A stretch of 63,040 bases of DNA, filler included, from Sphacelaria rigidula (lineage: Eukaryota): assembly GCA_964200075.2 (NCBI GenBank). It is 7 parts of 7 records of this genome, joined end to end, with 100 filler letters (N's around TTAATTAATTAA, not from the genome) between each part and the next. Parts side by side here need not be neighbours in the genome. Positions count along the whole stretch, not along the records: positions 45,103 to 54,021 come from CAXNAA020009753.1; 6 more parts are not named here. One strand, written 5' to 3'. The number at the start of each line of letters is the position of its first letter. Positions within the stretch are counted from its first letter, which is position 1. The position numbers and the translations under genes are program-made. A model generated the notes under the pieces. That model was not told the DNA's origin. It did not search any database and saw only the letters and a list, made by a program, of their open reading frames with translations. Positions 5,497 through 62,339 of this stretch are shown piece by piece.

Positions 5497-8400
5497 TTGA
5501 GACGTATTCCCATGCTGGTTGAAGGATCTTACTGTACCTGGAGGAAATATGAGGATGTGCTAGTGTCATTCAAGCCTTCCTGCAGTACGTTCCGTGAGAT
5601 GGTGTTATCATTGATGGATTGATGAATTGAGTGATTGATCGATCGATTGTCGCAGTTTGACCGACCCCCCCCCGGGATCCAGCCGTGGTCTCATGATGGA
5701 TGTACAAAAAATAGAACTGAAATACCCACTAGGGGAAAAACAAAACGGAAAATAAAAAGTCGAACTGAACGACGTAGTAGACTGAGACGTGAAAAGAAGA
5801 AAAAGCATTATCCTACACTACCCTACAATATGTGTCGTTCTATACGAGGCGGTTCCCCCGGAACTCAGTTGATAACTTCGAAACCGTCTGACGGGTGGCC
5901 ATGGGTTCAAATCTCGGAGCGATGGGGGATTCGTTTCTCACACAATATCTAACAGTGGAGAGCGATGATGTCGTGGGAACACAACATTCGACTCCACGGT
6001 CGACGAGGGGAAGGGACTGCTGAACCCCTTTCGCGATGAAAATAAAAAGCAAGTGCCGCAGAAGGAAGGTGCAGCACTGAAACAGACGGAAACCGAGAAA
6101 CTCTTGTGTTGACCTTCCTCCTGTGTGACCCCGGCTGGTGCGCTCACAAATACCGAAAGGTGTAGACCGGCGTCCAAAATAGATGGGACGACAATACACA
6201 CAACACACACTGTACCGCAGCCCCCGCAGTATGTTTACTTGCCTTGTGTGTTGTGAGTTTTGTTTGAGGCCATGCCTTTCGATGTAGCATGCGAGCATGT
6301 GAAGAACATACAAGTGCACAAACGAGTTGATGCCGAGGAGGCGCATCGTCGTGATCCGCGGCCACTTTGAAAAAAAGCTTGCCGTGTCTTGTTGACGGAT
6401 TTCAGGCCCCTAGTTTCGACGTCTCATTTATCGTCATTCTTGTCTCTTTCATGTAGGCCTTTTTGATCATGGACATATTGTCATGGTGAGCTATCACTGC
6501 CCTCGGAGTGGGTTTGTTCAACAACCGAAGTATCAACCCCTTGTGCGGTGCTGTCCCTATAGCCTTCGCAGCCGACTGGTGGTCCGCAGCACGGCTGCAG
6601 GGGCGGATGGTTCAGAGTACGTTGTTGTTTTCTCATCTCGGTTTGTTTATTTTCACTAGCGTCCCATCGTCTCGAGAATAAGATTGAAATTCCTAACGGC
6701 GTTACTGACACATTGATACATATAACAAATAACATTGAAGCTCGCAACGGCGTTACTGATCCGTACGTACGTGAGTGAGCAGTACGGCGTCCACTCTGAC
6801 GGATATAAGCTACATACATACTACAACGCTACCGTTGTAAAAATATACAAGAATACGGCAGACATACTACGACAGTACCGTTGTATACGACTGCCAAGAA
6901 CAAGCAATCGCTGTCAAGTCAGAATGAGTGCCAAGGTGGGAATCAAGATGTCATATCGTATCGCGCTGTCCATCGTCTTGGGCCATATTTTCCCCTCGGG
7001 TAAAATGTCTCGCCGTCAACGCTAATCCGCCATACCTCATCGTTTTCCCCCTTCATCACCATTCCAAGAATGGGTGTTTATCTCGCCATCTGTACGTACC
7101 CATAGCTCGCGAAGCGGTAAGTTCTTGACCCGACACGATTTTGTTTTTCACTTTACTGTACCGACACTTTCTACGATAGCCCCCCTTATGTCGATCGACA
7201 TAATAGTGGAAATCGGCTAATCAGCACTGATTCTACCCGACGTGCACTGCCGCTGTAGTTCCACGATAAACGGCGAAATTGTCGTGGAATCTAAAATGGC
7301 CCTGTGAGAAAATATTCACTCCCCGTTCGTGGTCATCGACGTATCTGTCATGTTTCGATCCGACTAGCGCTGCCGCTGTACGTTCGCTATGACGAGCGAA
7401 TTTGTAAATGTAGGAAATTGATACGTTACGACGCGACATAAACAGCCGTTCGTGGTGATCGGCAAATTTCAATGTTTCCCTCGCGCCATTTGTTTGGTTC
7501 TTGTGCTCAACGACGGTTTAATAAGTTTCACCTCTTTCATGGTGCAAATTTTGATACGTTGAATTTCGCGGACGACCCAACGTCCAAAGCCCCTCTGCAA
7601 TCGCTCATCGGTCAAATGGTCAAATTTTACTCCCCGGTCGTGATCGTCGGCGAATCGGTGAAATATTCCCACGTTTTCGCTCAAATTCCGATATGTTGCA
7701 TTTCTCGGTTGAGCCGACGTGTGTAGCTGCTCTTCAATCGTGCTCATGGGCAATTTTTCAAATTACTAACCCTAACCCTAACCCTTGAGTCAAACTTTGA
7801 CTCAACGGTCGACAAGGGGAAGGGAGTGCTGAACCCCTTTCGCGATGAAAAACAAAGGCAAGCATCGCTGAACGAAGGTGTACTATAAACACAAAACTAA
7901 ATCAAAGCTCCTGTGTTGACCTTCCTCCTGTGTGACCCCGGCCGGTGCGCCCACAAATACCAAAAGGCGTTGAGCGGCGCCCAGAATAGATGGGACGAAA
8001 ACACTCACACACACACCACGTCTCTATTGTTTTGTGCAGAGTGCGATACGTTGGATTTCTCGGAAGAGCCGACGTGTACAGCCGCCGTACGATCGTGCGT
8101 ATCGCTTATTTTTTCAAATTTTGCTCCCCGCGCATCCTCGTCGGCAAACTGGTAATTTTTCGCTCCAACGGAGGAACCGATATGTCGAGCTGTCTCGCCA
8201 CCACGCAACCCGTTCCCCATCACTATTTCTGGCGCCCCCAACACAGCCTCAATTGTGCTGTACATTCATGTATCGGCCCCTCTGATATCCATCAACGTCC
8301 CGAGTTTGGTGTAGTTGCTGAGAACGGTTTTCCCACCGGAGCTGCGAGCTGCGCTGCCAGCCTGCGACGCCGGAGACGCCAAGGAGGTCGCAAACGATGT

Positions 8401-8800
8401 AGCTTGCAGCTTGAACTGACTGCTTGAGCTCTTAGGACCTGATGCGACCTCCTTGGCGCCCTCAGCATCGCAGGCTGGCAGCACGTGGGAAGACGGAGGC
8501 ATGTTCCCGTCGACCCCCGGTGGGAGGTACCTGTATAACCCTGTGCCTTGAAGTCCCCCTCGACGGGAAACTCCTTCTCATCGACTAAACAACGCGCTCG
8601 ATCAGAGACGATGATGGATTTCACGGGGGTCGCCAGCAAAATATATCAACGCTCCTCTTGTGCGAAGGACCGCTGGTCTGTTCATTACCGTTTTGTCGAA
8701 ATATTTTCGCCCGCCCGCTGGTCTGATTTTGCGGCAAATGATCGCATAAGCGAAATATTTTCCGATTCATGTTGTCCTTACCTTGTCCAAAAAAATAAAA
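5497..8800 (+). repeat. Copy 2 of the segmental duplication, with extra insertions at ~5611-5808 and ~7766-8018
   Basis: Colinear with 60-2760. The two insertions are absent from copy 1. Confidence 0.9.
5611..5808 (-). mobile_element. 3' end of a retroposon family with a (TCAA)n tail; related copies ~46600-46688 (+), 47175-47270 (-), 62619-62760 (-)
   Basis: Shared gattgattg...gtcgca-ttt-ac-gacc-ccc-ggg-tccagccgtgg---catga motif. Inserted in duplication copy 2 only. Confidence 0.6.
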
Positions 8801-9021: not shown

Positions 9022-9079
9022 ACCGAGAGGTGCAGACTGGTGCCCAGAATAAATGGGACGACAACACACACACACACAC

Positions 9080-9352
9080 CGTACCCGCCCAATCCGGTAT
9101 TGTCAAAACTCATACCTACGATACCTATGATACCACGGTATTTCGAGATTTCCCCATACCTACCGTACCCGCCCAATCCGGTATTTTCAACACTCATACC
9201 TACGATACCTACGATACCAGGGTATTCCGAGATTTCAGTACCTACCGTATCCGCCCAATCCGGTATTGTCAAAACTCATACCTACGATACCTACGCATAT
9301 CACGGTATGGGATACCCCGGTAAATACCGGGGGTATACCCGGTATTTACCGA
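9080..9352 (+). repeat. 82-bp tandem array (~2.5 units) ending in a palindromic cap
   Basis: Unit cgtacccgcccaatccggtatt-tcaaa--tcatacctacgatacc-acgataccacggtatttcgagatttccatacctac. Cap is cggtaaataccggg-ggtata-cccggtatttaccg. Confidence 0.9.
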
Positions 9353-9871: not shown

Positions 9872-10684
9872 GTGATACAGGTACCCGGTACCGGTATTTG
9901 GGACATTTCATACCCCACTGATACCGACCCAACCCGGTGTTTTCAAATGTCATACAGTACCTACGATACCTACGATACCACGATATTTCGAGATTTCCAT
10001 ACCTGCCGTACCCGCTTAATCCGGTGTTTTCAAAGCTCATACCTGCGATACCCACGATACCACGGTATTTCGAGATTTCCATACCTACCGTACCCGCCCA
10101 ATCCGGTATTTTCAAATGTCATACCTACGACACCCACGATACCACGGTATTTCGAGATTTCCATACCTACCGTACCCGCCCAATCCGGTGTTTTCAACAC
10201 TCATACCTACGATACCCACGATACCACGGTATTTCGAGATTTCCATACCTACACCCGCCCAATGCGGGATTGTCAAATGTCATACCTACGATACCCACGA
10301 TACCACGGTATTTCGAGATTTCCATACCTACCGCACCCGCCCAATCCGGTATTTTCAAATGTCATACCTACGATACCCACGATACCACGGTATTTCGAGA
10401 TTTCCATACCTACCGTACCCGCCCAATGCGGTATTGTCAAATGTCATACCTATGATACCAGGGTATTTCGAGATTTCCATACCTACCGTAGCCGCCCAAT
10501 CCGGTATTGTCAAATATCATACCTACAATACCCACGATACCACGGTATTTCGAGATTTCCATACCTACCATACCCGCCCAATCCGGTATTGTCAAAACTC
10601 ATACCAATGATACCTACGCATACCACGGTATGGGATACCCCGGTAAATACCGGGGGTACTCTCGGTACGGTACCTTACCTACGG
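9872..10684 (+). repeat. 82-bp tandem array (~8-9 units) with the same terminal cap; probable non-autonomous element
   Basis: Period 82 (atacctaccg at 10081 and 10163). Ends cacggtatgggataccccggtaaataccgggggta, as does the 9080 array. Confidence 0.9.
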
Positions 10685-12281: not shown

Positions 12282-12610
12282 AGCCGCGCCCCGGTGGTGT
12301 AATGGTACAATTGACACCATGGGCGCGAGGGAAATGCGGGTTTTATTCCCGCTAAATGCGTCAAGTTTGCCCTTTCCCCTCTACAGTGTTTTATTCACGT
12401 TGTTGAAAAGCGCAAAAGGAAGTGACTAGCAAAAATAATCTTGTTTGCTGAATTTTTAGACGACAATCGATGAGGTGCGGGAGTGCTGATGGTCATGATC
12501 CAATCCGCGATAACAAAATGTCATACATGTACCGTGCGGAAGATGTTTGAACCCCTTGAGACCATGCACTCGCCCCGAGGATGCCTAGGGTCAGAAGTGA
12601 GAAAAAAAAA
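12282..12610 (+). mobile_element. tRNA-derived SINE, family B (diverged copy)
   Basis: gccgcgccccggtggtgtaatggt head. Body similar to the copies at 34284 and 61870. Confidence 0.7.
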
Positions 12611-16969: not shown

Positions 16970-17942
16970 GTTACGTTACACAAGCAAACGCCGGGGGTGA
17001 TGAAAAAGAAAAAGCTTCAGGGCTAAGCGAGAGCTTTTGTTTCGCACTACTGACCATTTTTGACCGTAGTAAGGTATTTGGATCTCCACTGCAGGATCCT
17101 CCTTGCACTAATGTCACAGTACAAAACCTCGCCCTGATGGTATGTAAAAAATGGGCTTAAATTGATCGCCGCTTCGCACTCCAAGGACGAGGTTTCAGAA
17201 AGGTGGGAGCTGGTCATGAAAAAGCTACATCATCTGAAAGAAAAAAAAAACAGTAAAGTCGCGAGTAAGATACAGTACCTGAACTAGACGGAGTCACAGC
17301 CTCCGCATCTTTTACAAGGCTTCTACTGCACTCTCCTTCTACCCTGTTTTCAGGGAGCATTCAGGCTCAGTATCTTGAAGTGAACGCTTGAATGCGCGGA
17401 CGCTCCGTTACGCGCTCGACTAATGATCAGGGGTTACCGACAGGGGGAGAGGGGAGGGCTTCAGAGAAAACAACATAGACATTAAATGGCGGACCCGCGT
17501 CCAAGAGTTGAAAGGTATGTGTGCACAGTTCTCGAATGTTGTGAGGCAGCTGTGAACACACGACTGAGCAGGTAAAAAATGTCTAGGCTCATTACTTGCG
17601 CTCGATCTAACCGCCAAGGAGGGTGGGGGTTTCCGAACAGAAGAAATAACACTGTCGAAAATAAACAATCAGGAACGTTCCTGATGTAATGTGAACAGGA
17701 CATTCCTGGATGCTCCTGGATATCCAAAGTTCTGACCTCCTAGAAAATGTCATTCCCCATGACCAACGCACTACTCGCTAGCTAGCTGTCCGGTCCCCAC
17801 AAGAGGCTTCCTCTTTTCAGGAATGTTCAATTACTCTCTATTATTTTGTCATCAGCCCCTCCCCTTCCTCCCGGTGCGGCACCCATGAGGCAGTGTATAA
17901 GCTGTGGCTGTCTCGGGAAGTGGCGATACCACAAAATAAAGC

Positions 17943-24143: not shown

Positions 24144-25381
24144 CGTACTAATTTGTTGCTCGCCTTAGTCGTTTGATGATTGACCACGTATCTCTTTCGA
24201 GACGGGGCACCGTCCCTACTTCTAATAGAGACATCTTCAACATTCCGGCGCTCATTACGTTTCTTCCATAGCTCATTATGTTTCTTCCATACATGACACG
24301 AAAATATTTTACATATCTTATCCCTGTCCTGTTTCGCCGTGTCTGGCCACCATCTATCTCGTAGTATAACCATCGTTTTCTCCCTACTGTCTAATGCATC
24401 AGACGATTTCATGCTACCTTCGTTGACATCCCGCATTTCCCCCCCTAGAACGTGCCGTTCCTCCTTGTATAGTTCACATTTTGCCACTTTATGACTTCTG
24501 CTCTCTCTTGCTTTGCCACAGAGACAGTTCTGTCCATCTACTTCCTCCTCCTTTCGACTGCTGGTATATCCTTTTCTTTTCTCTGGTAGGTCCAGGTCCT
24601 CCACCCGAAATCGCAGTTCCATTGTTTTCGCAGCGTCCATGGGGCCATGCAGATATGTTTTAATCCCGATCCCCTCTCGCGACCCCCCGTATATCTCCAG
24701 GTGTTCTTCCTCGTCTACCGTACGTCTGAGCGCTCCTTCTCCCCTCGTTTCTATTTTATCTCTTCCTTTTGCCGTGTACCCCGGGTCTTCATCTATGGAC
24801 AGTATTTCGTCTTGATGTCCTCCTATCTCCTTCAATCCTTTCTCGACTTCTTTATCCCGTCTTATAGCACGCCCTTTTGTACGTTTCTTCCATACAGCTT
24901 TGTCAACCATAGCTGGCAGTCTCTTTCTCTGCATATTCTTTAAGCTGTATTGCCATTTCAATTTTCTCGTGTCTCTGTTTGTTTTCAGTGAGTACATTCC
25001 CAGCTCTGCTCTCAGTGCTGTAATACTCGTCGTTTTCGAGCATTCAAGTATTTTCTTTGTTGCTGACATGTGTACTGTTTCTCACTTCTTCACCAACTTC
25101 ACCTTCCCCTCCCATACTTCTTCTCCATATGTTAGCTTTGGTACGATCACGTTCATCAGGATACATATCTCAATCCTTGTATCTAGTTGCGAATTTTTGA
25201 GGATCACGTCCATCCTTCCTATCTGTGCCTTACCCTTTTCTAATATTTTGTTCACGTGTGCATCCCAAGAACAGTGTTTTGAGATCTCTACGCCAATGTA
25301 TGTATACTGGTCTACAATCGGCAGTTCCTCTTCTCCCCACTTCCACTTCAACTCTGCCGAATTTTTCTTATTTTTCGAGGG
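24144..25381 (-). mobile_element. 5'-truncated non-LTR retrotransposon (LINE): RT thumb/C-terminal region, interrupted by a stop at 25082-25084; 14-bp TSD GGGGTTGGGGGGGG
   Basis: ORFs read LPIVDQYTYIGVEI..SWDAHVNKI..PKLTYGEEVW*..KKILECSKTTSITALRAELGMYSL..RKLKW..CLCGKARESRSHKVAKCELY, typical of LINE ORF2 C-termini. TSD at 24130-24143 and 25382-25395. Confidence 0.9.
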
Positions 25382-26875: not shown

Positions 26876-26889
26876 TCTCATACAGAGCA

Positions 26890-26962
26890 GCCGCGCCCCG
26901 GTGGTGTAATGGTCCGACTGTCGCCATTAGGGTGGAGAGAACGGGGTTCGATTCCCGATGCG
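26890..26962 (+). mobile_element. tRNA-derived SINE family B head, cut by the contig end
   Basis: gccgcgccccggtggtgtaatggtccgactgtc...ggggttcgattccc. Confidence 0.75.
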
Positions 26963-28889: not shown

Positions 28890-29295
28890 GAGTGCACTGA
28901 TTATCATGCATGCCGTAGTCGTACGACTATTGCCCTTGCATCCCTACCAAGCCGGGACGGGAGCACACCGGGATTTTTCCGGAACAGGCACGCAGTCAAT
29001 CACCAAGCACAAAGCGCCGTGATTTGTTCGGCGAATAGCATGAGGAGTGAGCTGCATCCTGCTCAGGTTGTTCGGCTCGAAGCGTATTGATTATATTGCA
29101 TGTGGATGGCAGCCTCGAATTGAGTTGCTTCATTTTCTGGTATCGCCACTTGAAGGAGCAGCCACGGGTTACTACTCTGCGTCGTGTGTATGGGGGGGGT
29201 GTACTCGTGATCTTGCGTGCTGGAGTCATAAGACCGTTGACCTCGCATCCCTACGAGGCCGGGACGGAGCACGTCGGGCTTTCACCTAACCAGGG
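28890..29295 (-). mobile_element. Two adjacent truncated copies of the C-run-associated element (~28890-29172 and ~29199-29292)
   Basis: Both begin just after G-runs, with gtg-actgat-atcatgcatgcc and gtgtactcgtgatcttgc, and match 49380-49667 in reverse. Confidence 0.75.
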
Positions 29296-29992: not shown

Positions 29993-31611
29993 GTGAGTAT
30001 CACTCGCACGAAACGTTCGCCACAACTACAAAAAGCAAGCGATTGCGAAGCCGGGAGCCAAGAGGTCCGCGGCCTTTTTTCCAGGCATCACGGATTCACT
30101 TTTGATTCGTCTGTTCCCGTCACGCCGGTAATCTGTAGTTACTGTTCGCCTTCGTGTGCGTGTTTGTGTGTGTTATGCTGCCATCCCATCTAGTCTGGAC
30201 CCCAGTCTACACCTGTCGGTGTATGTGAGCGCATCAGTCGGGGTCTCACAGGAGAAAGGCCAACCCAAGATTTTTTTCATTATTATTTTGTTTTTGTTCT
30301 AGTGCTCCACCTTCCTTCTGCGGTGCTTGCCTTAATTTTTATATATCGCGAGAGGGCTTCAGTAGTCCCTTTCCCTCGTCGACGGTGACTTTGTTTGGAA
30401 ACATAAGAGAAAAAATGGACGTTTCACTGGCACGAACTTTTCCGTGCTTTTTTGTAGTTCTTGTCCGATCGTTCATTAGAATTGACAGTCGAACTGCAAA
30501 GCGGTTCGTGTGCGGTTTGACGGAGCCCCTGTCTCACATACGGTTCGTGCAGGTTTTGCCGGTACTTTATCAGACAGCACATGCGAGGGGCTGTCTTGTG
30601 CAGCCGGTCGGTGGCTCTTTCATCAGCATTTGTAGTGAACAACTTGTTTTGGGATAATTGGAGCAGATGCATGGTAGAAATCGATATGTTCCCAGGTGGT
30701 ACACTGAGCCTGACAATATCCAACATAGCAACATGTTTTGCTTGCACTCATACTGAAGATTAATGGTAGTACCAGTACTCTGAGGTATCGGCGGGTATGT
30801 ATGCGGAATGACCTTTAATATGTTGAACTACGGTGCACCAATCCCTCAAAGCACTCCGCAGAGCTACCGGACAAGTGTCTTCGGTTTTGTGGCCCTTCCA
30901 GGGAGTATGTTCGCACCGTAAGTGACGTACGAGCACACCTCGCCATTCAGGTGAGGTCTATGGCATAACTGCCATTGGTACTTGCCCTGTTGCGTGTTTT
31001 CCCCGCCTTTTTCTGTCACGACAGAGATTCATCACCATCTCCTACCGTAAAACGTCATCCGGCCGCAGGCCCCCACGTTCTGCATACCGTGACGAGATCC
31101 TACTGGAGCTATCAGTCGGAGGAAGATATACACAGTTGGGGTGGTCAACTTCATGTCATTTCAGCCTGCTGGGCAGTCACACAGACCAAACGTTTGAACC
31201 GCTTGCACAAAAGCAGCTATGATCTGTCTGGTGAATATTTCGTGCTAGCGCCCCGGTCCCCGCTTTCCTCTTTCCCTTCACTCTCCCGCCGAGATGATCA
31301 CGGAGTCGCGGAAAGATGGACGGGGGCACAGCTGTGGAATGTGAAACATCTCTGAAACGCGAAAGCGGCTATGTGACTCCTCCTACCCCCCCCCCCCCCC
31401 CCCCCCCCCCCCGCCAGCTCTCTCCCTCCCCCCCCCCCCCCACGCCAAAATAACCCCCACAACCAACCATCCGCCCCCTCTTATAANNNNNNNNNNGGGC
31501 GGGGGGGAAGCTGTGGAATGGTAAACAACCCCGCAACCGGAAAAGGGCTTTGTGGCTCCCCCCCCCCCCCCCCCCCCCCCTCCCCTTCACAAGTAGTTTG
31601 CTTTCCACCCC

Positions 31612-32416: not shown

Positions 32417-32745
32417 GCCAGCCGCCGCGTTCCGGTGGTGTGAATTAAAATGATCAGGCTGTCACCATCAGGGTGGAAAGAACGAGAGTTCGAAATCCTG
32501 ATGCTATGGGTTTTTCCTTCGAGGCATCTGATTTCCACCTTGGAAAGCGTGATTATCGCACGCGAGTGAACAAAAAATAGTTGACTGAGTTTGTTTGGCG
32601 ATAATTGACGCGGCGCGGAAGTGCTGACCCAATCCGCGAGACGAAAATGTAAGGAGGCGTCTCCCAGGGTAGAGGTGTGTTGATCCTTCGAGACCACGGA
32701 CTCGTCCCGAGAAAGGGCAAGTCTTCGAAGTGCGACAAATACACG
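32417..32745 (+). mobile_element. tRNA-derived SINE family B (diverged)
   Basis: Same head and body as the copies at 34284 and 61870. Confidence 0.7.
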
Positions 32746-34283: not shown

Positions 34284-34600
34284 GCCGCGTCCCGGTGGTG
34301 TAATGGTCCGACTGTCGTCATTAGAGCGGGAGAGGACGAGGGTTCGATTCCCGATCGATGCGTTGGGTTTTTATTTCTTAATATCTGACTTCCACCGTGG
34401 GAAGCGTGAGAAAGTGAGTAAACAAAGTAGTTGACTGAGTTTGTTTGACGTGAGTTGACGGGGTGCGGGAGTGCTGGCACAATCCGCGAGACCAAAATGC
34501 GACGCGTGTACTGTACCGGGGAGAGATGAGTGAATCCCTTGAGACCACGGGCTCGTCCCGAGGAAGAGGAGGGGATCAAAGTGCGGCGAATAACATCAAA
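34284..34600 (+). mobile_element. tRNA-derived SINE family B (near full length)
   Basis: A-box TGGTGTAATGG, B-box GGTTCGATTCC, shared ~230-bp body ending aaagtgcg-cgaataa. Confidence 0.8.
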
Positions 34601-34789
34601 TAGAAATAAAACTATATAAATGAAAACACAGCAGTAGTCGCGTCCACCCCCTCAATCACATTTTGGCTGTTGTATTCTGCGAGGAGGCTGCCACCGATCG
34701 CTTCGCTCACCCGTGCTGCTCATTTTGTCCAAGATTGATACCCAAACGTCCAACTATCCCTCGCTTTCGTGCGTGAACCTTATCTTCAG

Positions 34790-34914: not shown

Positions 34915-35982
34915 TGGCGACATCGAAAAGGCTGTTGACAGCATGCAACTGTCAACGATGCGTCTTCTTTTTTTTTTCCAACTAGGGCATTCAAAGTGTT
35001 GCATGTTCTCCCGTATATTTCCTCCCGCCATCTCCCGCTTTCCATTGCGCCGTTCTTGCTGGCGTATGGCGGGGGGCTGAAGGGGGGCTGTGAAAATGAA
35101 AAAAGTGGGGAAAATGTGTGGAAGGTGAGACGGAAAGTTGAAAGTACGGTTGGTGTTGGCATTGGCTACAGGCTTCATGTGACACGCCCCGTAGTCCTCT
35201 ACTTTTGTCGAAACCGTAGTTTGGGCTCATCATCAATGACGTGTTACGTTTCACAGCAGCTGAGACGACCCCTTGGTGCGTTGTACAGATATGAAAATTA
35301 CAGTATACTCGAAACCCCCTGCAGTGTCTGCTACGCATCGTTTCTGGATTACTTATTGTGAGTGTGTGTTGTGGCGACAGTTTTATACTGTCCGATAGTT
35401 TTGTCGTCAGATTAATATAGCCCTACGCTATAACTCTCCAAAGCGACCCACCTCAAGTGAGCCTGCCAGCTTGACATTGTGTTTGATTTGAGTTCGGCCG
35501 AGTGAAGCGCCAAGTTCGAAATACATCTTTTTTTATTCCGCAAGTGTTTAACCAACACTGTGCAACCTCTGCGAGCTTTCTTGTCAGAGTTGGTTTCACC
35601 CGTTGAACCTATTGTTCCTGTCACGTTGAGAGTTGAGCACTGTGTACTTTGTACACAAGCCACGACATCCATATAATATTATCAACACATACCCAACTCT
35701 TGTTTTCGAGAGAACGCTTCGATATCGTCACGTTGTGTTTTAGGATAAAAGGAATATCGTTCAATGACCATCTGCAATAGGTCTTGGCGGGTAACCTCCC
35801 AAGGGTATGCACTTAATGCCACCGAGAATCTGGCTTCGTTTTTTGCGCGTACATATATAGCTTTTGGTTGTCGGTACTGAAGCACTCGTTTTCTTCGGAG
35901 ATGTAGAAGTGGGTGTACTCATGATAATGCATGCCATAGTCATCAGACCATTGACCTCGCATCCCTACAAAGCCGTGACGGA

Positions 35983-41560: not shown

Positions 41561-42771
41561 CGTACAGGCTGATCCAGCCTAGAAACAGGTTTAAGCTTTC
41601 AAAGCAAAATCTCACCGACGCAGACGAGTTGGGCCGTGATCTGCATAGTGTATTAACGTCGAATCAAGGGGAAGGTGCCCATCTGCCCGAAAGTCTGGGG
41701 CATTTTTTTCTCGTTGATTAACCCCATGTCTAGTAGTTCCTATATCTTGCGGAGGTAGCGTCCATACTAGAGTCTATATTAAACCCCCAACGGTATATGC
41801 AGCAAATGATGACGATTTTGGTGTGGACCTTCCCTGGAGCACGGGGAAACTGTAGATAGTGTCACCTTCACCTGATTCGCCATCTATCTCGAGATATGGC
41901 GCACATAATATTCTATACTAAATTTCAATATATTACGAGTAGAGGTACTATTGTAACTACACTGAATCTGGATATCATGTCTCAGTTATCGAGAGTTGTG
42001 CTTTGAAATTTCGTATGAAGAATCGCTAGTGCATAATGAAATAGAAAAATAAAAACTGTTTCTCAGTTTTTTCTCCATTTTTTTTCGTTTTTTAGGGGAG
42101 TTTTTAAGGGGAAATGGGCATTGATTTTGGTCCTTATATCAGTTTCTTGACTCAATCTTTAGATTTGCGATTCGAAACTCAGCATGGAGAATCTCCAATG
42201 AATGCTGAAAAACAATGAGCGTTCGCTTTTTTTCTTTTCTGAGAGAGGTTAGGGCGTTCTCGTAAAAAAATGGTCTCAACCATACTTGAATGTCCTAAAC
42301 CAGTAAAAAATCAAGATCAAAATCGACTTGGCCCACTATTTTAGGTTTATCATGCCCTAGCGAGGTCCCACACGAAAGTTCAATACACAAGTACTGTACC
42401 AAACCTGGACCGGTAAGTAACCTGCAAAATATTGTTCCGAATTTCGATCGGCCCGGTTTTAGACGGCCCATTCTCACATCAATTTCAAGAGCTGGACCTT
42501 AAAATTTGGTATGGAGAATGAATAGGACACGAAGAAAAAGTGTACGGACACGAATATTTTTCTTCATTATTAGTTCAAGGCAATGATCAGTTTTCAGGTT
42601 TCAGTAAAATGCCTTCAACTCATGGAAGAAAAAAAACTTTTGGGTCCATACATGATTTTTTCATCATGCCCTATTCATTGTCCACACCAAATTTCAAGGT
42701 CCAACTCTAAAAACTGATCTGAGGATGGGCCTACAAACTACAAATCCGCTTTTAGGCTGTCCCAGCTCGTA
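41561..42771. mobile_element. Non-autonomous DNA transposon related to the TACGAGCTGGGCCAGC TIR family, with a nested fold-back at ~42465-42731
   Basis: Degenerate ends gtacaggctgatccagcct and aggctgtcccagctcgta. 41650-42300 matches 54270-54885 in reverse. Confidence 0.65.
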
Positions 42772-43565: not shown

Positions 43566-43662
43566 TTATGACTATGGCATGCATGATGAGTACACCCCCC
43601 CCCCACCGGTCAATGGTCAAACGACTAAGGCAAGCAACAAATGAGTACGCCCCCCCCCACCG
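43566..43662 (+). mobile_element. Adjacent 3' stubs of the C-run element and of the LINE; the LINE stub is flanked by the TSD ccccccccaccg
   Basis: ...gcatgatgagtaca(C)10accg-gtcaatggtcaaacgactaaggcaagcaacaaatgagtacg-(C)8accg. Confidence 0.7.
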
Positions 43663-44897: not shown

Positions 44898-45002
44898 GTG
44901 AAGTGGCGTTAGTTACCCTTCGGTTACATTCCCGGGAAGGAAGGGGGGGGGGGGGGGTACTCGTAATCTTGCATGCCATAGTCATAAGACCATTGATCTC
45001 GC

Positions 45003-45102: not shown

Positions 45103-45323
45103 ACTTCCGTTGTCCCTAACAAGGACGCTTTTAAATAAAATTTTGGGGGGAGAAACGGCCCCAAATCCCCCCCCCCCCCCCCCCCTATCGGCATGCATGA
45201 TCATGAGTACACCCCCCTATCGTAGCATGACTGACTCTTCTTTTTTTTCCACCCGCGACGGAGCGAACGTGTCATCAATGATTCGGAGGCACGGGCATGC
45301 ACAAAACGAACCCCCCCACAAAC

Positions 45324-45421
45324 GAGCCTGGTCCGGCGGAAACCCGGCGTGCTCCGTCCCGGCTTTGTAGGGATGCGAGGTCAATGGTCTTATGACTATG
45401 GCAGGCATGATCATGAGTACA
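45324..45421 (+). mobile_element. 5'-truncated copy of the C-run element with the 12-bp TSD ccccccacaaac
   Basis: TSD at 45312-45323 and 45422-45433. Ends catgatcatgagtaca. Confidence 0.8.
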
Positions 45422-47857: not shown

Positions 47858-49099
47858 CTAAGAAAAGAAAAAACGAAAAAAAGAGAAAGATAAGTGCAAG
47901 AAAGACGGGAAAAGCCCAAGGAATCCAGGGCGGTATAGTAGATACAACAGACACACACCAGTGGGCACTGCAGAGCCATCGACTAAGGACATAATCAACA
48001 ACCGATATGAGCAGACAGGATTTTTCGATCGGTAGCCCTCGACGCAGGAGCCTCTCGCTTGTAACGGCGGTCTGCTTCTCGTTTGTCCGCGTGTCGCCAC
48101 GTGTCCTCAAACTCTTCGGCCCCTTTTTCGACGCCACATAGCCAGATATCTTCCGTCAGCACCCATAGACGTGAATTGGTACAGCGCTTCCATCAAGCAC
48201 CCTCCCCCGGTCCTGTTCAGCATCAATAATCTTGCGAATCGTCAACAACGCCACCATATCAAGTACTGATGGACAAGCCCGGACCTACCGGGGAACACAA
48301 AAAACAACATCTCAGTGGCGTACAGGCACCGCAAAATCATTTACCTAGCGATCGAAATTCATGGCCTGAAGCTCGTCTCAACACGTCGCACGCAGGATTG
48401 ACGCTTCGCGTGGTTGACTCTTTGCGTCATTCAGTCCACTCAAAAAGTAATTGATCAACCATGAAAGGTAATATTTGCTCTTGCCTACGGTCAACGTAGA
48501 CTAACTCAATTGGAACTGCGATCCAGAGCAAACCTCGGAGTTGTTGCTCGTCGCGTACTCACGCGCATGGCGTATTGAAGTTACTCACAGAGACAGACGT
48601 GTTTTTAGAACTCATTACCTCAATTCCATCTGGAAAAAGCTAACACAAAACACCAACAGATTGTAAAACCCTATTTGGTCTACTTGGTGTTCGGACGCGC
48701 CGTCTGCAGGACGGTCGGTATCAGGTGTAGTTGTCAGTCACCACCTACAAAACTTACTATACAGCAACGCTGCACCCAGGCTCTGCAAGCATGTTGCCTG
48801 CGATTGCCCTGCGCTGTATATGGGTGCACAATGTGCATATTAGAGTGACGTAGATGATAAAATATGGCGCGAAACCTGACTCCAGCTGCAGGTTTCGAAT
48901 CCTGTTTACATTTGCACTCTCTCCAGCCCAAGAAGTCCAACGTACCTCTCCGTGGTGTGAGCTTGATCTGGTTAGACAATAATTACAGTTGCCCCTCCCA
49001 GCTTTGAATTTGTACCAAGCTCCCAAAAGCGTGATCAAGCACACTACTAAAAAAATAAACCGATCAAACCACACGACAGTTTCCCTCCCTACTCCAGAA

Positions 49100-49667
49100 A
49101 TCAGCCTGGTCCGACGAGAACCCGGCGTGCTCCGTCTCGGCTCTGAAGCGGCGGACCCTCGATGGGGTTGGCGTCCGTTGGCGATGACGCTATAAAACAC
49201 GCCACTCACTACGTAAGCTAGGTAACCAGGTTACCTATTGTTTTTTTGCGCGCTTGCGTTTTTTTTGCGGTAACCATGATGGTAGTCGAGCTAGATCATG
49301 TTGTGCGGGTTGGAGAACCTCAACTTCGCTCAATGGGAATGATTGAACCACGTAGTGTTTATGTGGTGAGACACACATGAGGCAGTGTATCAGCCGTGGC
49401 TGTCTCTGGAAGTGGCAATACCAGAAAATGAAGCGACTCATTGGAGACTGTCATCCAAATGCAAGATGATCAGTAGGCTTCGGGCCCAACAATCTTAGCA
49501 GGATTCAGCTCATCCTTCATGCGACTCGCCGAACACACCACGGCACTTCGCCCTTGGCGATTGAGTGCGAGCCCGGTCCGGTGGAAATCTTGCCTGCTCC
49601 GTCTCGGCTTTGTAGGGATGTGAGGTCGATGGTCTGATGACTATGGCATGCATGATCATGAGTACAC
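49100..49667 (+). mobile_element. Full-length ~570-bp non-coding retroposon-like element with the 13-bp TSD CCCTACTCCAGAA
   Basis: TSD at 49087-49099 and ~49669-49681. Internal ~45-bp direct repeat at ~49106 and ~49572. 3' end catgatcatgagtaca then a C-run. Confidence 0.85.
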
Positions 49668-49858
49668 CCCCTACTCCAGAAGAGCGGTCTTCAGATCTGC
49701 AACTCCAAACCTCCGAACACGAAGTCTGTCTCGCCCCCATGAATCGTCGTTTCACGAGAAACATGGGGTTCAGGCAGTATCACATACCATTATTCGCAAT
49801 AATAAATCCAAGTAAAATCACTAGCTCTCTCATGCTTGGAATTATGTCTCGCATTAAT

Positions 49859-49899
49859 AATGGTGACAGTCGGACCATTACACCACCGGGGCGCAGCGG
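49859..49899 (-). mobile_element. Head fragment of tRNA-SINE family B
   Basis: Reverse complement reads ccgctgcgccccggtggtgtaatggtccgactgtcaccatt. Confidence 0.65.
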
Positions 49900-54189: not shown

Positions 54190-54977
54190 TGTTCTAGGGC
54201 ATAATTGACAAAACTCGGTGGGTTATGTTTTTTTCATTTATTTTTTCGCTGGTTTAGGGCGTTTTTGTATGAAAAAGACCATTTCTTTACGAGAACGCCC
54301 TGATTTCCATTAAAAAAAATGAAGGCCGATTTTTTTTTAATTCGACACACCTTCGTGGTTCTCCATGCTAAGTTTCAGATGACAATTCTAAAAATTGAGC
54401 TTAAACATTGAGATAAGGGCTAAGAGCAATGATCATTTCTCCTCAAATCTCCACTAGGAACACGAAAAAAATGAAGAACGATTAAAAAAATAACAAGCTG
54501 TTTTTTCATGTTAATATGCACTAGTGGTTCACCACACGAAATTTCATGGAACAACTCTCAAAAACAGACGCGATATCCAGATTAAGGGCATCTAGTGCCT
54601 CTGCTCGTAATATATTGATTTGAATATGGAAACGTATGTGTGCCATATCTCGAGATGAACAACGAATTCGGTGAAGTTGAGGGTATCTTTCATCTCCACG
54701 TGCTCTAGGGAAGGCACCAAAAAATCGTCATCATCCGCTGCATGTATCGTTCGGGGTTTCATGTGGATTTTAGTGTCGACGCTGTCTCCGTAGGGTATAG
54801 GAATTACTACACATAGGGTTTAATCAAAGAGAAAATATTGGCCCAGCTTTTTAGCAGATAGCACCTTTCCCTTGATTAAACGATCAATACGATACGCGGA
54901 TCACGGCCCAACCCGCCCGTGTCGATAAGATATTGCTTTCAGAGCCCAAATCCGTTTTCAGGCTGGCCCAGCTCGTA
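54190..54977. mobile_element. Second copy (opposite orientation) of the 41561-42771 DNA element, ending in the TIR ggctggcccagctcgTA
   Basis: Reverse-complement similarity to 41650-42300. TIR identical to 16954-16969. Confidence 0.7.
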
Positions 54978-55741
54978 CGGGTAATAGCTATGTGTGGTTG
55001 CAAAACTTCGCGCAACTGTCTGTAGTACAGTACAGTAGTCGTGTACAAACAACTTCCAAGTTTCATCTGAAAAAGATGCGTATCTCATCAATTGCAGCAG
55101 CAATCACCGCCCTGAAACTGCGCGACTACACAAATAGTCCACTAAATAGTCACTGTTTGATTTGGGAGTGAAAAGTAGGTCATTTGTCTGAGTTGCACTT
55201 CCACTTTTGGGGCATCTGAATGTGCGATTCAAATATTTAATTCTTTGAATTTTCTTCATTCACCGCGATGTTCCATGCGCAGGTCCCGCGAGCAACAGTA
55301 AACAAGAGCATAGGGGACGGTCATGCGTCTCTACCTGAAAACCCAGCACAGGCACGAGATATCCCCCGCTGGAAGTCGCGATGCATACCGTATCAAAGCC
55401 ATGCCGGGAAAGCATGAACAGCACCTCAACATACCAAAGATGCTGAAACACAACGGATAGTACTGCACCCGTCTGTACGCGAGTAAACTGTACTTGCTGT
55501 CTGTACTATGGCGATTGACCATCTTTTGGGTGTAGTTGCTGGACTTGATGGCGTGTCAACCAAAACTCCGAAAGCGTTTTAGAGACGCTTTATCGAAACA
55601 AAAACGTAAAACACCGGCATATCCCTACGCAGGTGGATCGGTAGCATCACCATCTCTGCACACTCTGATTCTTCACAGTACACCCCCATTCTATGGTAAG
55701 CACTCCTTGCAAAACGCGAATAACTCCGCGTCATAACTCAC

Positions 55742-56045: not shown

Positions 56046-56810
56046 GTGTCCCTCAACACCCGAAGATCAAAGTGCGCCGGTTGCCCAGGCCCCCGCTGTC
56101 TCCAGCGAGCCACAGTCCCTGCACAGCTTCTGCTGCTGCTGCTTCTACCACCGTATCTGCTGACGTTGAAGCGAACTGTGATGGTACAGCCCTGTGGCCC
56201 GCGGCCAGGGCGCTGAAAGCTGCTAATGTTGACGCTAATGAACTCCGCTGATGAAGCGGACTCGGTGTGTGTTTTACTACTGCACAGATGTGCTGTGACG
56301 CCTTCCCTTCGCAGTTGTTTTGTGTCCCCGTTTGATGCACGCACGTTGATTCTCGGAATCTTAGAGAGGGCGTTATCGACTGCTGAATATATCGAGCACT
56401 CTGTATGTAAGTTTTGTCGCTACGTGCCTTGATTTACGTCACGTGTCGGAGTAGCAGCTGACCTGCTGCTACGCTACCTCCGTTAGCCAAGCTTGCTGTT
56501 GTGGTTTACGAATCTAAGTTCTTGGGTGAGTTCTTGGATAAAAGTGCGTATAAGTAGTCATTTGCTAGTAATGTTCGCGTACTCTTTTGGTCATGCTACT
56601 CTCATGACATGAGGCAACGGAAACACACGTCGTCCTGCGGTTTTTTCTGCACCGCGCAACCTACAGGACCCACGGCTGCGAACGAAAAGTAGACAAGTAG
56701 GGAAGCATTTGCGCACAATCTGGAGCTGACACCAGATTCATCACTTGATACTGTTCTCTCAGTCAAATCCAACATTCGAATAGCTGCTTCTCGAGGCCAC
56801 GTGTAGAGTC

Positions 56811-58036
56811 ATGCGTCGTCCACAGCCGCTCGAAGAACTGGAGACATCACGATGGCCTAGCTCTTCCAGTAACTCGCCCAAAGGCAGTCGACGCCGCGTA
56901 TCGATGGAATCAGCTAAGAACAATCACCTGCGAGGCTCGGGAATGACCGTCGTAGCCGCATGGTGTCTGTTGTTGTGGTGCGTGGGCTCTCCTACCGGCC
57001 GAGCGTCCACGTCAACGGGTGGACCAACTCAGGGTACGTTTCCTCTGAGGGGCACAACGGCGATCAACGAAGCACCGCTCATGAACCATTTCACTGCCCG
57101 CCGACGGGGCGAGTGCCCCACCGACAAGGTAAACGGTAGATCTTCATGCTTTGATGGCAATGCTGACTCACGGGATACCAAGGAGAAGAAAGTGGTGACA
57201 AGCAAGCGAAGAAATGTTGGAGTGAGTGGTGGAGCTGGGTCGGGTCGTGAAGATACCACAGCGAAAATTGAACGTTCCGGTCCAAGTGCAAGTGCAACGA
57301 CCAACACCCGACACCACTCCGAGTATCACAGCCCCCGACCTGCTCTCTCAGCATGGTTGCAGCTACATCGCGGGGACAGTGCTCCAGGCAGCAAGATCGT
57401 AGGCGAAGACGATCCGAAGGCGGATAGGCACGGACGGCGCAAACGCAGCTCTCGCAAGGCCCGGCAATTGGCAGAAGCGGGCCAACAAGACGGTTTGTCG
57501 GCCAGGACTGCAGCCATGATCAAGACTATCACCCGCGGTCCATCAGCGCTTCAATCCGGGGCATCCGCGTTCGCCGCGTCTGTGGCTGCTGCGGCGCAGA
57601 AGTCGCAGTCAAACGAACGTTTGGACGAGATGAAAGGGCTGTTACCTCCGAAGTCGTATCTGCTCTGGCCGTCCAGCGTGAGCAACACGGGGGATCGCGA
57701 AGTCAAGCTGACAGGACGACGGAGTAGGCAAACGTCAGTGGACGGAGGGGGACTAACGCGGAAAACCAACGTCGAAGAAGGCGTGGAAGAAATTGCGAGG
57801 AAACGACAAGGCTCGCTGCCCTCGGTGAAAAAGTCCAGGGACGGTGCGGAGCACGCGAGTTGTTTGACGTTCAAGCAGGCCATGTTCGCAGGGGCTGTCA
57901 GCCGGAGCATTGCGCAAACATGCATGCAACCGGCGAATGTAGTAAAAACGCTGCTGCAGGGCCGTGGGACCTCGAAGCAACTCTCCAACCTGTCGTTCAG
58001 TTTATTGACCCGAGGAGCAGGCGCGCAGTTCACAAT
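56811..58036 (+). CDS. Mitochondrial carrier family (SLC25) protein, exon 1 with a long N-terminal extension
   Basis: 408-codon open frame ending FKQAMFAGAVSRSIAQTCMQPANVVKTLLQ...LTRGAGAQFT, donor AT|gtacgt. The true start could be a downstream Met. Confidence 0.82.
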
Positions 58037-58387
58037 GTACGTCTCTCGTGTACAGAGCGCTGGAATGAAGTCAGTTGCAGGTTCCCTTTGCACACGTTTT
58101 GTCTGGCACAGGTGGAGTTTCACGGCCGAATTCGCACCATCCTGCAGCGTTCTCTAGCAGGGGGCATGTCGGATCACATTTGGTTTCATGGGATAGCTTT
58201 ACAGTACGCTGCCTATACAATTGCTGACAAGGGAAGGTGTGTTGCTGCAGGCGTGGACCCCCCCTACAGTTGTTTTAGGTATTAGCGTTGTACCATAATT
58301 TCGCCCCGAGCTCTCTTCCGACGTACCCCCCCCACATTCCGCTGCTGCCGCATGATAATCGTTCCTCGCGTATTTCCCACCCCGCAG

Positions 58388-60547: not shown

Positions 60548-61869
60548 GTAAGACACGAGATCCTTACTTATATCTTTGGGCGTTACTTACTTGAGCCTTT
60601 TTAGAATAAGAGGAATATACCCCGGGAAAACGATCATTTTTTCTCCCCGAGCCCGTAGAGTGTTAGAGCTGGAAGTTGTCAGGGAAAGCGGATATTCCAA
60701 GGGAAACCGCTAATCGATTGTTGCTCAGATCTCCCGTCGGAATGCTTCAGTGCGTGCCACCCTCGTCGCCTTTTTCAACACCCTGAACAATAACCTCTTC
60801 CTCCGATCCAGAACTCTGTATCACTCCTTGCCCTTTCCGTCCACCTCGCGCGAGTCCAAAAGGATGAGGGTGAAAGCCCCGTTCGACTCACCCACCTTGT
60901 AGTGTACAACTTCCCAAGTGTGATGCCAACATTCCTGCAGGAAATAAAAACGTGTATCGGGGGATTCCTTGATACTTTGTGTGTAAGCCCGGGTATTGCT
61001 CACCCGTTGTCATCGTGACTCCAAAACGTCGACTGAAGCACTTGTGTGCTGTGCACGTGATCTACTACAAGAGCCGATCCTAGCAAGGGAGGCCAAACAG
61101 TGTCTCTGTTGTTTTTGCTGTAGGTTTCAGCATTGGGACCTGATATTCTTGGGAGAGAGACGAATCGAATATCTAGAGGCAGGCTTCCACATCCACCTTG
61201 GCGTTTGTGCTTCTTTTTCAATCCGTTTGACTGAATTTCTCGACTAAATAGTTGTTATGCCCCGGGATACACCTAAATGAACGGAAACGAAGGCCGTAAC
61301 GCAGTCGACAGGCTCCTCACCTCAAACATTCAGGTTGTAACTGTTGATGATCCCAGCAAAAGATTCGAGATGTGGTCATCCCTCAAAGCTTGGAACAGTC
61401 GTACTAGGTATATCCTTGGACAAGATATCCCCTTGTATTCATTTCGGCAACAGCTTGTGAACGGCAACGAGTTGAGACTCGAAGTAGGTACCGTTGTTCT
61501 CACCACGGTGCCAGCAGATGCGCATACACCGTGTTCTTCGGACAGCCGAGCAAGACCTTAGTGTTGTTGACTTTTGTGCCAAGTCGTTCCCTAACCTCCT
61601 CCAAAAAGTGTCTCGAATTATGAATGTACCCGAACGCGACGCACTTGGGGGTGGTTGTGTGGTTACCTGGAGCCTCATTCTTGTATTGACGGTTTGCCGC
61701 GGTTCTCGCGCTTTACCTAGGAGGACAACTTTCTGGTCTCATTCGGGTGGGACCGGCCTGCAAAGCACGCTTCACAACCATTTTATCGCTCCCACAAACA
61801 TCCCGTAAAACCTTGGTGGTTCTTTGACATGACTACCTGTTGAAACAGGAAATGTTCTGTATATATGCA

Positions 61870-62175
61870 GCCACGCCCCGGTGGTGTAATGGTCCGACTG
61901 TCCCCATCTGGGTGGAGAAAACGGGGGTTCGATTCCCGAAGCGTTGGGTTTTTGCTTCGAAGTATATCTAATTTTCACCGTCGAACGCGTGAAAACGTGA
62001 GTAAACTAAGTAGTCGACTAAGTTTGTTTGACGTGAGTTGACGGTGTGCGGTAGTGCTGACGCCACCCGCGAGACCAAAATGCGAGGCGTGTACCCGGGA
62101 GAGATGGGTTAATCCTTTGGGACCACGGAGGAGACCACGGAGGAAGGGGAGGGCTTCAAAGTGCGACGAATAAAT
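61870..62175 (+). mobile_element. tRNA-derived SINE family B (full length, intronic)
   Basis: A and B boxes plus the shared body. Ends aaagtgcgacgaataaatt. Confidence 0.8.
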
Positions 62176-62339
62176 TAAAGAATGAAAGAAATCATGTATT
62201 TTCCGATGAGTCGCTCGATGAGTATCTGTAAAAAGACGTCCATTCTGCTAGCAACCTCGTCCCCTTCGCCCATTCTGTTTCCACCCACCTCTTGCGCTGC
62301 TGCTTCTGCTGCTCTGGTGGCCCCATGAAATGGCGACAG

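Follow-up and report, generated by a model that had tools for sequence, protein, structure and literature searches.

A non-coding, bipartite retroposon of Sphacelaria rigidula with a LINE-like tail, a probable counterpart of RTEX-N1_Ec32 of Ectocarpus

The closest described system is that of Ectocarpus, for which the consulted parts of PMC12477816 report the repeat RTEX-N1_Ec32 with a length of ~600 bp (604-607 bp), more than 6000 copies, 2.48 Mb of sequence and a C-rich target-site duplication (TSD). Its 60-bp 3' end is 83% like that of RTEX-1/2_Ec32, its homology with the RTEX-2 5' end is weak, copies sometimes stand in tandem, and the head is given as unknown; RTEX-1/2_Ec32 are LINEs with a single endonuclease-reverse transcriptase (EN-RT) ORF, a (C)n end and a length of 5.5-5.9 kb (PMC12477816, same parts). 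In the consulted part of PMC3145265, the most abundant unclassified repeat of Ectocarpus is Sower (1.2% of the genome, ~2.5 Mb). The name 'Sower' does not occur in the main text of PMC12477816; we infer from abundance that RTEX-N1_Ec32 may be Sower, since each is described as the most abundant repeat, with ~2.5 Mb for Sower and 2.48 Mb for RTEX-N1_Ec32. Bipartite non-autonomous LINEs, e.g. Bov-A, RIME, NARTc and RTESINE1/2, have RTE, Ingi, Vingi and R2 elements as their sources and usually keep the LINE's 5' end; RTE-X is not among the sources listed in the consulted part of PMC5786205.

The window, i.e. the whole stretch of 63,040 nucleotides analysed here (seven contigs joined by spacers), contains a focal element copy with a body of 569 bp (49100-49668). 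An exact 13-bp TSD lies on either side (49087-49099 = 49669-49681) and the 3' terminus is ...ATGAGTACA, followed by a C-run, as the initial annotation had described. Positions 49102-49666 correspond to family positions 1-563, then CC, with 92% identity to the family consensus. We consider this element, with a probability of about 0.85, to be the non-autonomous partner, bipartite and non-coding, of a brown-algal LINE with a single EN-RT ORF, i.e. the counterpart of RTEX-N1_Ec32 with RTEX-1/2_Ec32 in Ectocarpus. The features of the focal copy, and the copy of the partner LINE in the window, are the following.

49087-49099, plus strand: left TSD, 13 bp, opening with CCC, same sequence as 49669-49681
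49100-49668, plus strand: full-length non-autonomous element, from the family alignment
49103-49150, plus strand: 5' copy of a 48-bp repeat, forming the element's 5' end, from repeat comparison
49165-49205, plus strand: 41-nt block, homologue of LINE 5'-end nt ~17-57 (34/41 between the consensuses)
49241-49266, plus strand: T7 and T8 runs, from the sequence
49364-49383, plus strand: place where shorter copies preferentially begin, family position ~260 (12/40 copies)
49570-49617, plus strand: 3' copy of the 48-bp repeat, also a preferred 5' end (~465; 7/40 starts within 3 nt)
49594-49665, plus strand: 72-nt tail, homologue of the LINE 3' end with two hairpins kept, from alignment to the LINE
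49669-49681, plus strand: right TSD, same sequence as 49087-49099
24144-25374, minus strand: partner EN-RT LINE, 5'-truncated copy with a 14-bp C-led TSD

Twelve family pieces (the focal copy and 11 others) are present in the window, on five contigs; 5 of the 12 lie at a contig break, in agreement with the remark that several contigs break in the element, and each of the ten positions that had been listed for such pieces falls in or at the edge of one. The other pieces are given below.

17873-17942, plus strand: copy from position 262 on, with a C-rich run before it, ended by the contig end
18043-18412, minus strand: piece with positions 95-464, cut at the contig start
18576-18681, minus strand: piece with positions 2-107
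28893-29294, minus strand: two 5'-truncated copies head-to-tail (469-563, then 270-563)
35914-35982, minus strand: 3' piece at a contig end
36125-36512, plus strand: piece with positions 12-398, after C20, close to a contig start
43565-43594, plus strand: 3' piece flanked by C-runs, then a short LINE tail (43608-43649)
44957-45002, minus strand: 3' piece at a contig end
45185-45216, plus strand: short 3' piece flanked by C-runs
45323-45421, plus strand: ~100-bp copy from the 3' repeat onward, with an 11-bp C-led TSD, from family alignment and TSD

Other repeats of the window comprise a ~82-bp-unit tandem array with long open frames on both strands (9078-9344 and 9892-10631), a ~2-kb repeat with two copies that are 75% identical (176-2090 and 5807-7758; related pieces at 7791-8740 and 30160-30387), and a ~750-bp repeat with two opposite-strand copies that are 73% identical (41561-42314 and 54237-54979). 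A 457-codon open frame lies at 56784-58157; its end resembles what we take to be an exon of a mitochondrial carrier protein.

The very high copy number that had been proposed is borne out by the 244-Mb assembly, in which a first look gave 6908 candidates (40 of these were scored) and exact 21-mer matches numbered 1035 and 431, whereas the reversed controls gave 0. Among the 40 scored, the full-length copies closest to the focal one have 85-86% identity to it, and full-length copies have 90-93% identity to their 563-nt consensus. In an unselected sample of 60 evenly spaced contigs (covered over no more than their first 10 kb; 476,392 bases), 35 matches, five of them LINE tails, make up 0.9% of the sequence; 22 element tails compare with 27 LINE tails, and rough scaling to the genome gives ~11,000 element 3' ends and ~14,000 LINE 3' ends.

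Truncation of the family is one-sided and not symmetric: in a set of 52 unselected pieces that retain both flanks, an intact 3' end goes with a truncated 5' end in 32 and the reverse holds in 2 (p 3e-8); 2 pieces are whole and 16 are internal, the last including 4 LINE 5' ends. A TSD score of at least 10 was obtained for 7/24 full-length element copies (mismatched-flank null 8.3%), 5/28 truncated element copies (null 5.7%) and 12/45 LINE copies (null 10.8%); a clear TSD is hence absent from most copies of the element and of the LINE, and is above the null in all three sets. Recognisable TSDs are few because the copies stand at 90-93% to their consensus and C-rich flanks match by chance. The TSDs of the element (11-17 bp) and of the LINE (12-23 bp) are alike in being of variable rather than fixed length and C-led, with C as the first base in all 17 listed. 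The flanks of both element and LINE are rich in C, the fraction of which is 0.68-0.77 just downstream and 0.48-0.51 upstream, vs. 0.25 genome-wide. The C-run at the end of every copy would allow a further copy to insert behind it: 7/26 near-full element copies directly follow a LINE tail (an eighth pattern match, at locus L011, was rejected by eye and stands outside this count), and in a separate run (X1) 30 contigs have an element 3' end joined to a 5' end, head to tail.

The partner LINE family is represented by 5392 candidates in the assembly. Its 5' end is precise and stands directly after a C-run in 25/25 aligned copies (picked for matching that end), and overlapping copies yield the 5' UTR, the endonuclease and the reverse transcriptase, with a total length of ~5.6-6 kb as estimated from overlapping consensuses. 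Within the 5' UTR, a unit of ~62 bp is repeated in tandem, in numbers that vary and reach ~18 (L068:330-1100; L070:1-1100, minus strand; L075:530-1110). The LINE frame stops ~5 nt before the C-run, so the tail shared with the element is coding in the LINE. A metagenome contig with 88% identity to the LINE family consensus carries a single uninterrupted frame of 1426 codons with Exo_endo_phos and RVT_1 domains (L177:712-4989). The single EN-RT ORF, the (C)n end and the size are as in RTEX-1/2_Ec32, and from this description, rather than from a tree, the LINE would be assigned to the clade RTE-X. The closest named protein relatives are those of Ectocarpus sp. CCAP 1310/34, from which the LINE differs in being 63-70% identical (best, 70% over the RT region, in a cluster of 73). 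This makes a brown-algal host very likely, and probably one of another species or an element of another family. Motif scans of metagenome and viral contigs for relatives in other species gave 0 hits, and protein scans for relatives gave one locus of 85 candidate stretches, 0/20 and 0/2.

Element and LINE share a 3' end of 72 nt with 54/66 aligned bases identical (score 54 vs. 27 for the best of 200 shuffles), and this homology is visible already between the window's own copies. The claim of a shared terminus of only ~8 nt is thereby refuted; the shared end is an ordinary ~70-nt tail of the stringent type. Element and LINE have two hairpins of this tail in common, in which 11/11 pairs are retained despite 12 substitutions (chance 0.026), and the differences lie mostly in loops. 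A second stretch of homology is found near the other end, where element positions 64-104 match LINE nt ~17-57 (score 47 vs. 24 for the best of 200 shuffles). Both versions of this 41-nt block can form an 8-bp stem, the loop of which can pair with 5 bases on the far, downstream side of an A-rich linker to give a predicted pseudoknot; its retention between element and LINE has a chance of ~3.5%. Both structure p-values (~0.03) overstate the significance, as these very sequences had served to choose the structures. Among copies of the block, substitution rates at paired and unpaired sites are alike (0.057 vs. 0.064; 0.059 vs. 0.068), as expected under neutral decay, and the copies thus give the pseudoknot no support.

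No LINE match was detected for element positions 1-24 and 105-490; the other four element segments that were compared match no part of the LINE, and a 13-nt likeness between position 261 and the LINE 5' UTR was rejected as not significant (p 0.52). Since ~400 nt of the middle are without LINE homology, the element is not a plain internal deletion of the LINE. The LINE-derived 5' block also sits at element nt 64-104 and not at the element's 5' end. On the strength of these alignments the element is a composite, i.e. more than LINE 5' and 3' parts alone, and part of its head probably derives from the LINE's 5' end.

The comparison with RTEX-N1_Ec32 (PMC12477816, consulted parts) covers size (~600 bp), thousands of copies, ~1% of the genome, the C-rich TSD, the tail, the weak 5' homology and the tandem habit; the difference is a length of 563 bp here vs. 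604-607 bp, and the match is by description, not by sequence. To this extent the element's kind is already published for Ectocarpus. The suggestion that it corresponds to a catalogued Ectocarpus repeat is therefore probably right in kind, in that the description of RTEX-N1_Ec32 fits, and the link to the name Sower comes by way of abundance. As with the bipartite LINEs in the consulted part of PMC5786205, which are thought to be transcribed by Pol II, there is no ORF, and parts of the LINE's 5' and 3' ends are kept; the difference is that the 5' block is here preceded by a head of 63 nt and followed by ~400 nt to which the LINE gave no match. Stringent SINE/LINE pairs (PMC3747384, consulted part) likewise have a common 3' tail with a conserved stem-loop; here, in contrast, there is no small-RNA head or Pol III promoter, the tail ends in (C)n, and it is coding in the LINE. 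The 48-bp repeat, the preferred 5' ends and the pseudoknot are absent from the RTEX-N1_Ec32 text and table rows searched in PMC12477816, and the repeat, the start clusters and the pseudoknot were not found described in the literature searched, which included few subscription papers and excluded Repbase.

The family has the features of a non-autonomous non-LTR retroposon: 3'-anchored copies, variable TSDs, a LINE-like tail and no coding frame (the longest open frame in the element is 56 codons). From the sequences we infer mobilisation in trans by the LINE protein; rival LINE families were sought among the loci examined. The initial annotation had likewise named the window's LINE as the mobilising partner, and this part is sustained by the 5' truncation, the C-led TSDs and the shared 3' and 5' sequence; the recognition through ~8 nt is not. 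By analogy with how non-LTR retrotransposons work, the LINE protein would bind the two-hairpin tail of the element RNA (stringent recognition) and nick the G-rich strand of a C-run, reverse transcription would be primed on the RNA's C-tail, and a second-strand nick would follow ~11-17 bp away. Transcription would most likely be by Pol II (through read-through or the LINE-derived block) and not by Pol III, and the 48-nt head would most likely be a duplicated, shortened 3' module that arose from a nested insertion.

The 5' ends of element copies cluster at positions 1, ~260 and ~465, and positions 1 and ~465 are the same 48-nt repeat sequence. At position 261, 12/40 copies begin, vs. 1 in the next 36 nt upstream (p 1e-10); at the 3' repeat, 7/40 copies begin within 3 nt, vs. 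1 in the next 37 nt (p 6e-7). The position-261 count was made on the first 40 matches to the 20-mer at 261, all on the plus strand except L197 and L216, of which one begins at 261 and the other continues upstream; L178 and L186 (4 nt scored) were taken as starting at 261, and L224, which adjoins an N gap, was left out of the upstream bin. The 261 cluster is independently present in the random sample and in run X1, in which 296 contigs with loose ends have a C-run before the position ~260 region. Such clusters could be due to source lineages of fixed length, transcription start set by sequence, RNA cleavage or polymerase stops; the most likely of these causes are the first, with a small number of lineages, and the second.

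A proposal that we regard as rather unlikely, and that would add to the best explanation without replacing it, gives the 48-nt repeat an active role in setting 5' ends, at the level of RNA or DNA. It might be a self-cleaving RNA of a type not yet described, a site of RNA processing or a promoter of the downstream kind, so that copies would begin with its first bases at position 1 as well as at ~465; a second such signal would lie at ~260. The sharpness of the start clusters (p 6e-7 at the 3' repeat, p 1e-10 at 261) and the precise 5' end of the LINE itself in 25 copies are consistent with this proposal, as is the repeat: its two copies, which do not co-evolve, differ at 1/48 sites, and hairpin 1 is retained in the 5' copy, with two pairing-compatible changes. 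The same clusters are, however, expected from fixed-length source copies (subfamilies) or from reverse-transcriptase stops; position 261 has no sequence in common with the repeat, and Ectocarpus has a 188-bp RTEX-N2 that shares the last 100 bp (PMC12477816, consulted parts). Twister ribozymes sit at RTE 5' ends (PMC8501958, consulted part), and on the decayed element copies neither twister nor any other ribozyme was matched by Rfam; an HDV-like descriptor, run without a positive control, gave 0 folds. In its fullest and equally doubtful form, the proposal models the element as an RTE-X bipartite derivative in which the repeat, by self-cleavage or as a downstream promoter, would cut or start read-through RNA so as to release the full unit as well as a mini-unit of ~100 nt, and in which the LINE-derived, conserved pseudoknot might serve protein binding or transcription.

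Far less probably, the element is a genuine Pol III SINE whose small-RNA head has escaped recognition, as the size, the absence of an ORF and the LINE-derived tail could suggest, and as the Ectocarpus authors left open (PMC12477816, consulted parts). No A box or B box was found in the element by pattern search, whereas the tRNA-like repeat of the window, used as a control head, has both. The initial annotation's statement that there is no obvious tRNA head agrees with Rfam, the box search and the comparison with the tRNA-like head (p 0.22); no similarity to the host 5S rRNA was found (p 0.29), and none to 7SL, the latter through Rfam alone. Rfam gave 0 matches on the focal copy and 14 on 18 loci, all of them to microRNA families below the gathering score, and the three shown lie outside the element. 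T7 and T8 runs at element positions 137 and 155 would stop Pol III, and the head duplicates the 3' module, which further argues against this reading.

The tRNA-like repeat of the window is dispersed as well, is ~325 bp long and has a head that resembles a tRNA and contains A and B boxes (61867-62191; also 34284-34610, 32421-32741, 26887-26962, 49858-49897 and 12282-12351). Its tail is different, and it is probably a genuine SINE of tRNA origin. ARAGORN called no tRNA gene in it, and no row mentioning tRNA was found in the consulted part of the 2025 Ectocarpus repeat table (PMC12477816). A 5S rRNA array of at least 7 copies, mostly ~263 bp apart, was observed at G000:C6318:7235-10447, together with many dispersed 5S matches (47 scored).

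The internal direct repeat that had been noted as ~45 bp near both ends is real and measures 48 bp; its second copy, however, is not terminal, but opens the last ~97 nt of the element, and the second half of this copy is LINE-derived. A TRIM, a retrozyme-like LTR element or a DNA transposon with these direct repeats as terminal repeats can be dismissed: the two copies keep a fixed difference at one site (G/A) in 27/30 elements, and substitutions in the 5' repeat recur in the 3' repeat of the same copy in 3/67 cases (2.2 expected, p 0.41), so the repeats do not co-evolve and are not regenerated like LTRs, and the non-terminal second repeat, the one-sided truncation and the variable TSD length stand against it as well. 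Two chimeric loci (L245 and L028), in which the 3' repeat runs into sequence that is normally downstream of the 5' repeat, look as if they arose by recombination of the two repeats or by a template switch from one to the other, and similar joints occur in run X1.

The bipartite, LINE-partnered family makes up ~1% of a brown-algal genome and causes contig breaks in its assembly. What is added here to the published Ectocarpus work is modest, namely the start clusters and the mapping of the 5' block, which are absent from the texts searched: they provide a probable origin for part of a head that the Ectocarpus paper left open, and evidence against a Pol III SINE. If the doubtful signal function of the 48-nt repeat were true, it would also account for the head that is given as unknown in the repeat most abundant in Ectocarpus. 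The three sharp 5' ends make the transcription and the delimitation of such elements directly testable, and a C-run-targeting LINE with a compact tail that would act in trans offers a clean system for the study of target choice.
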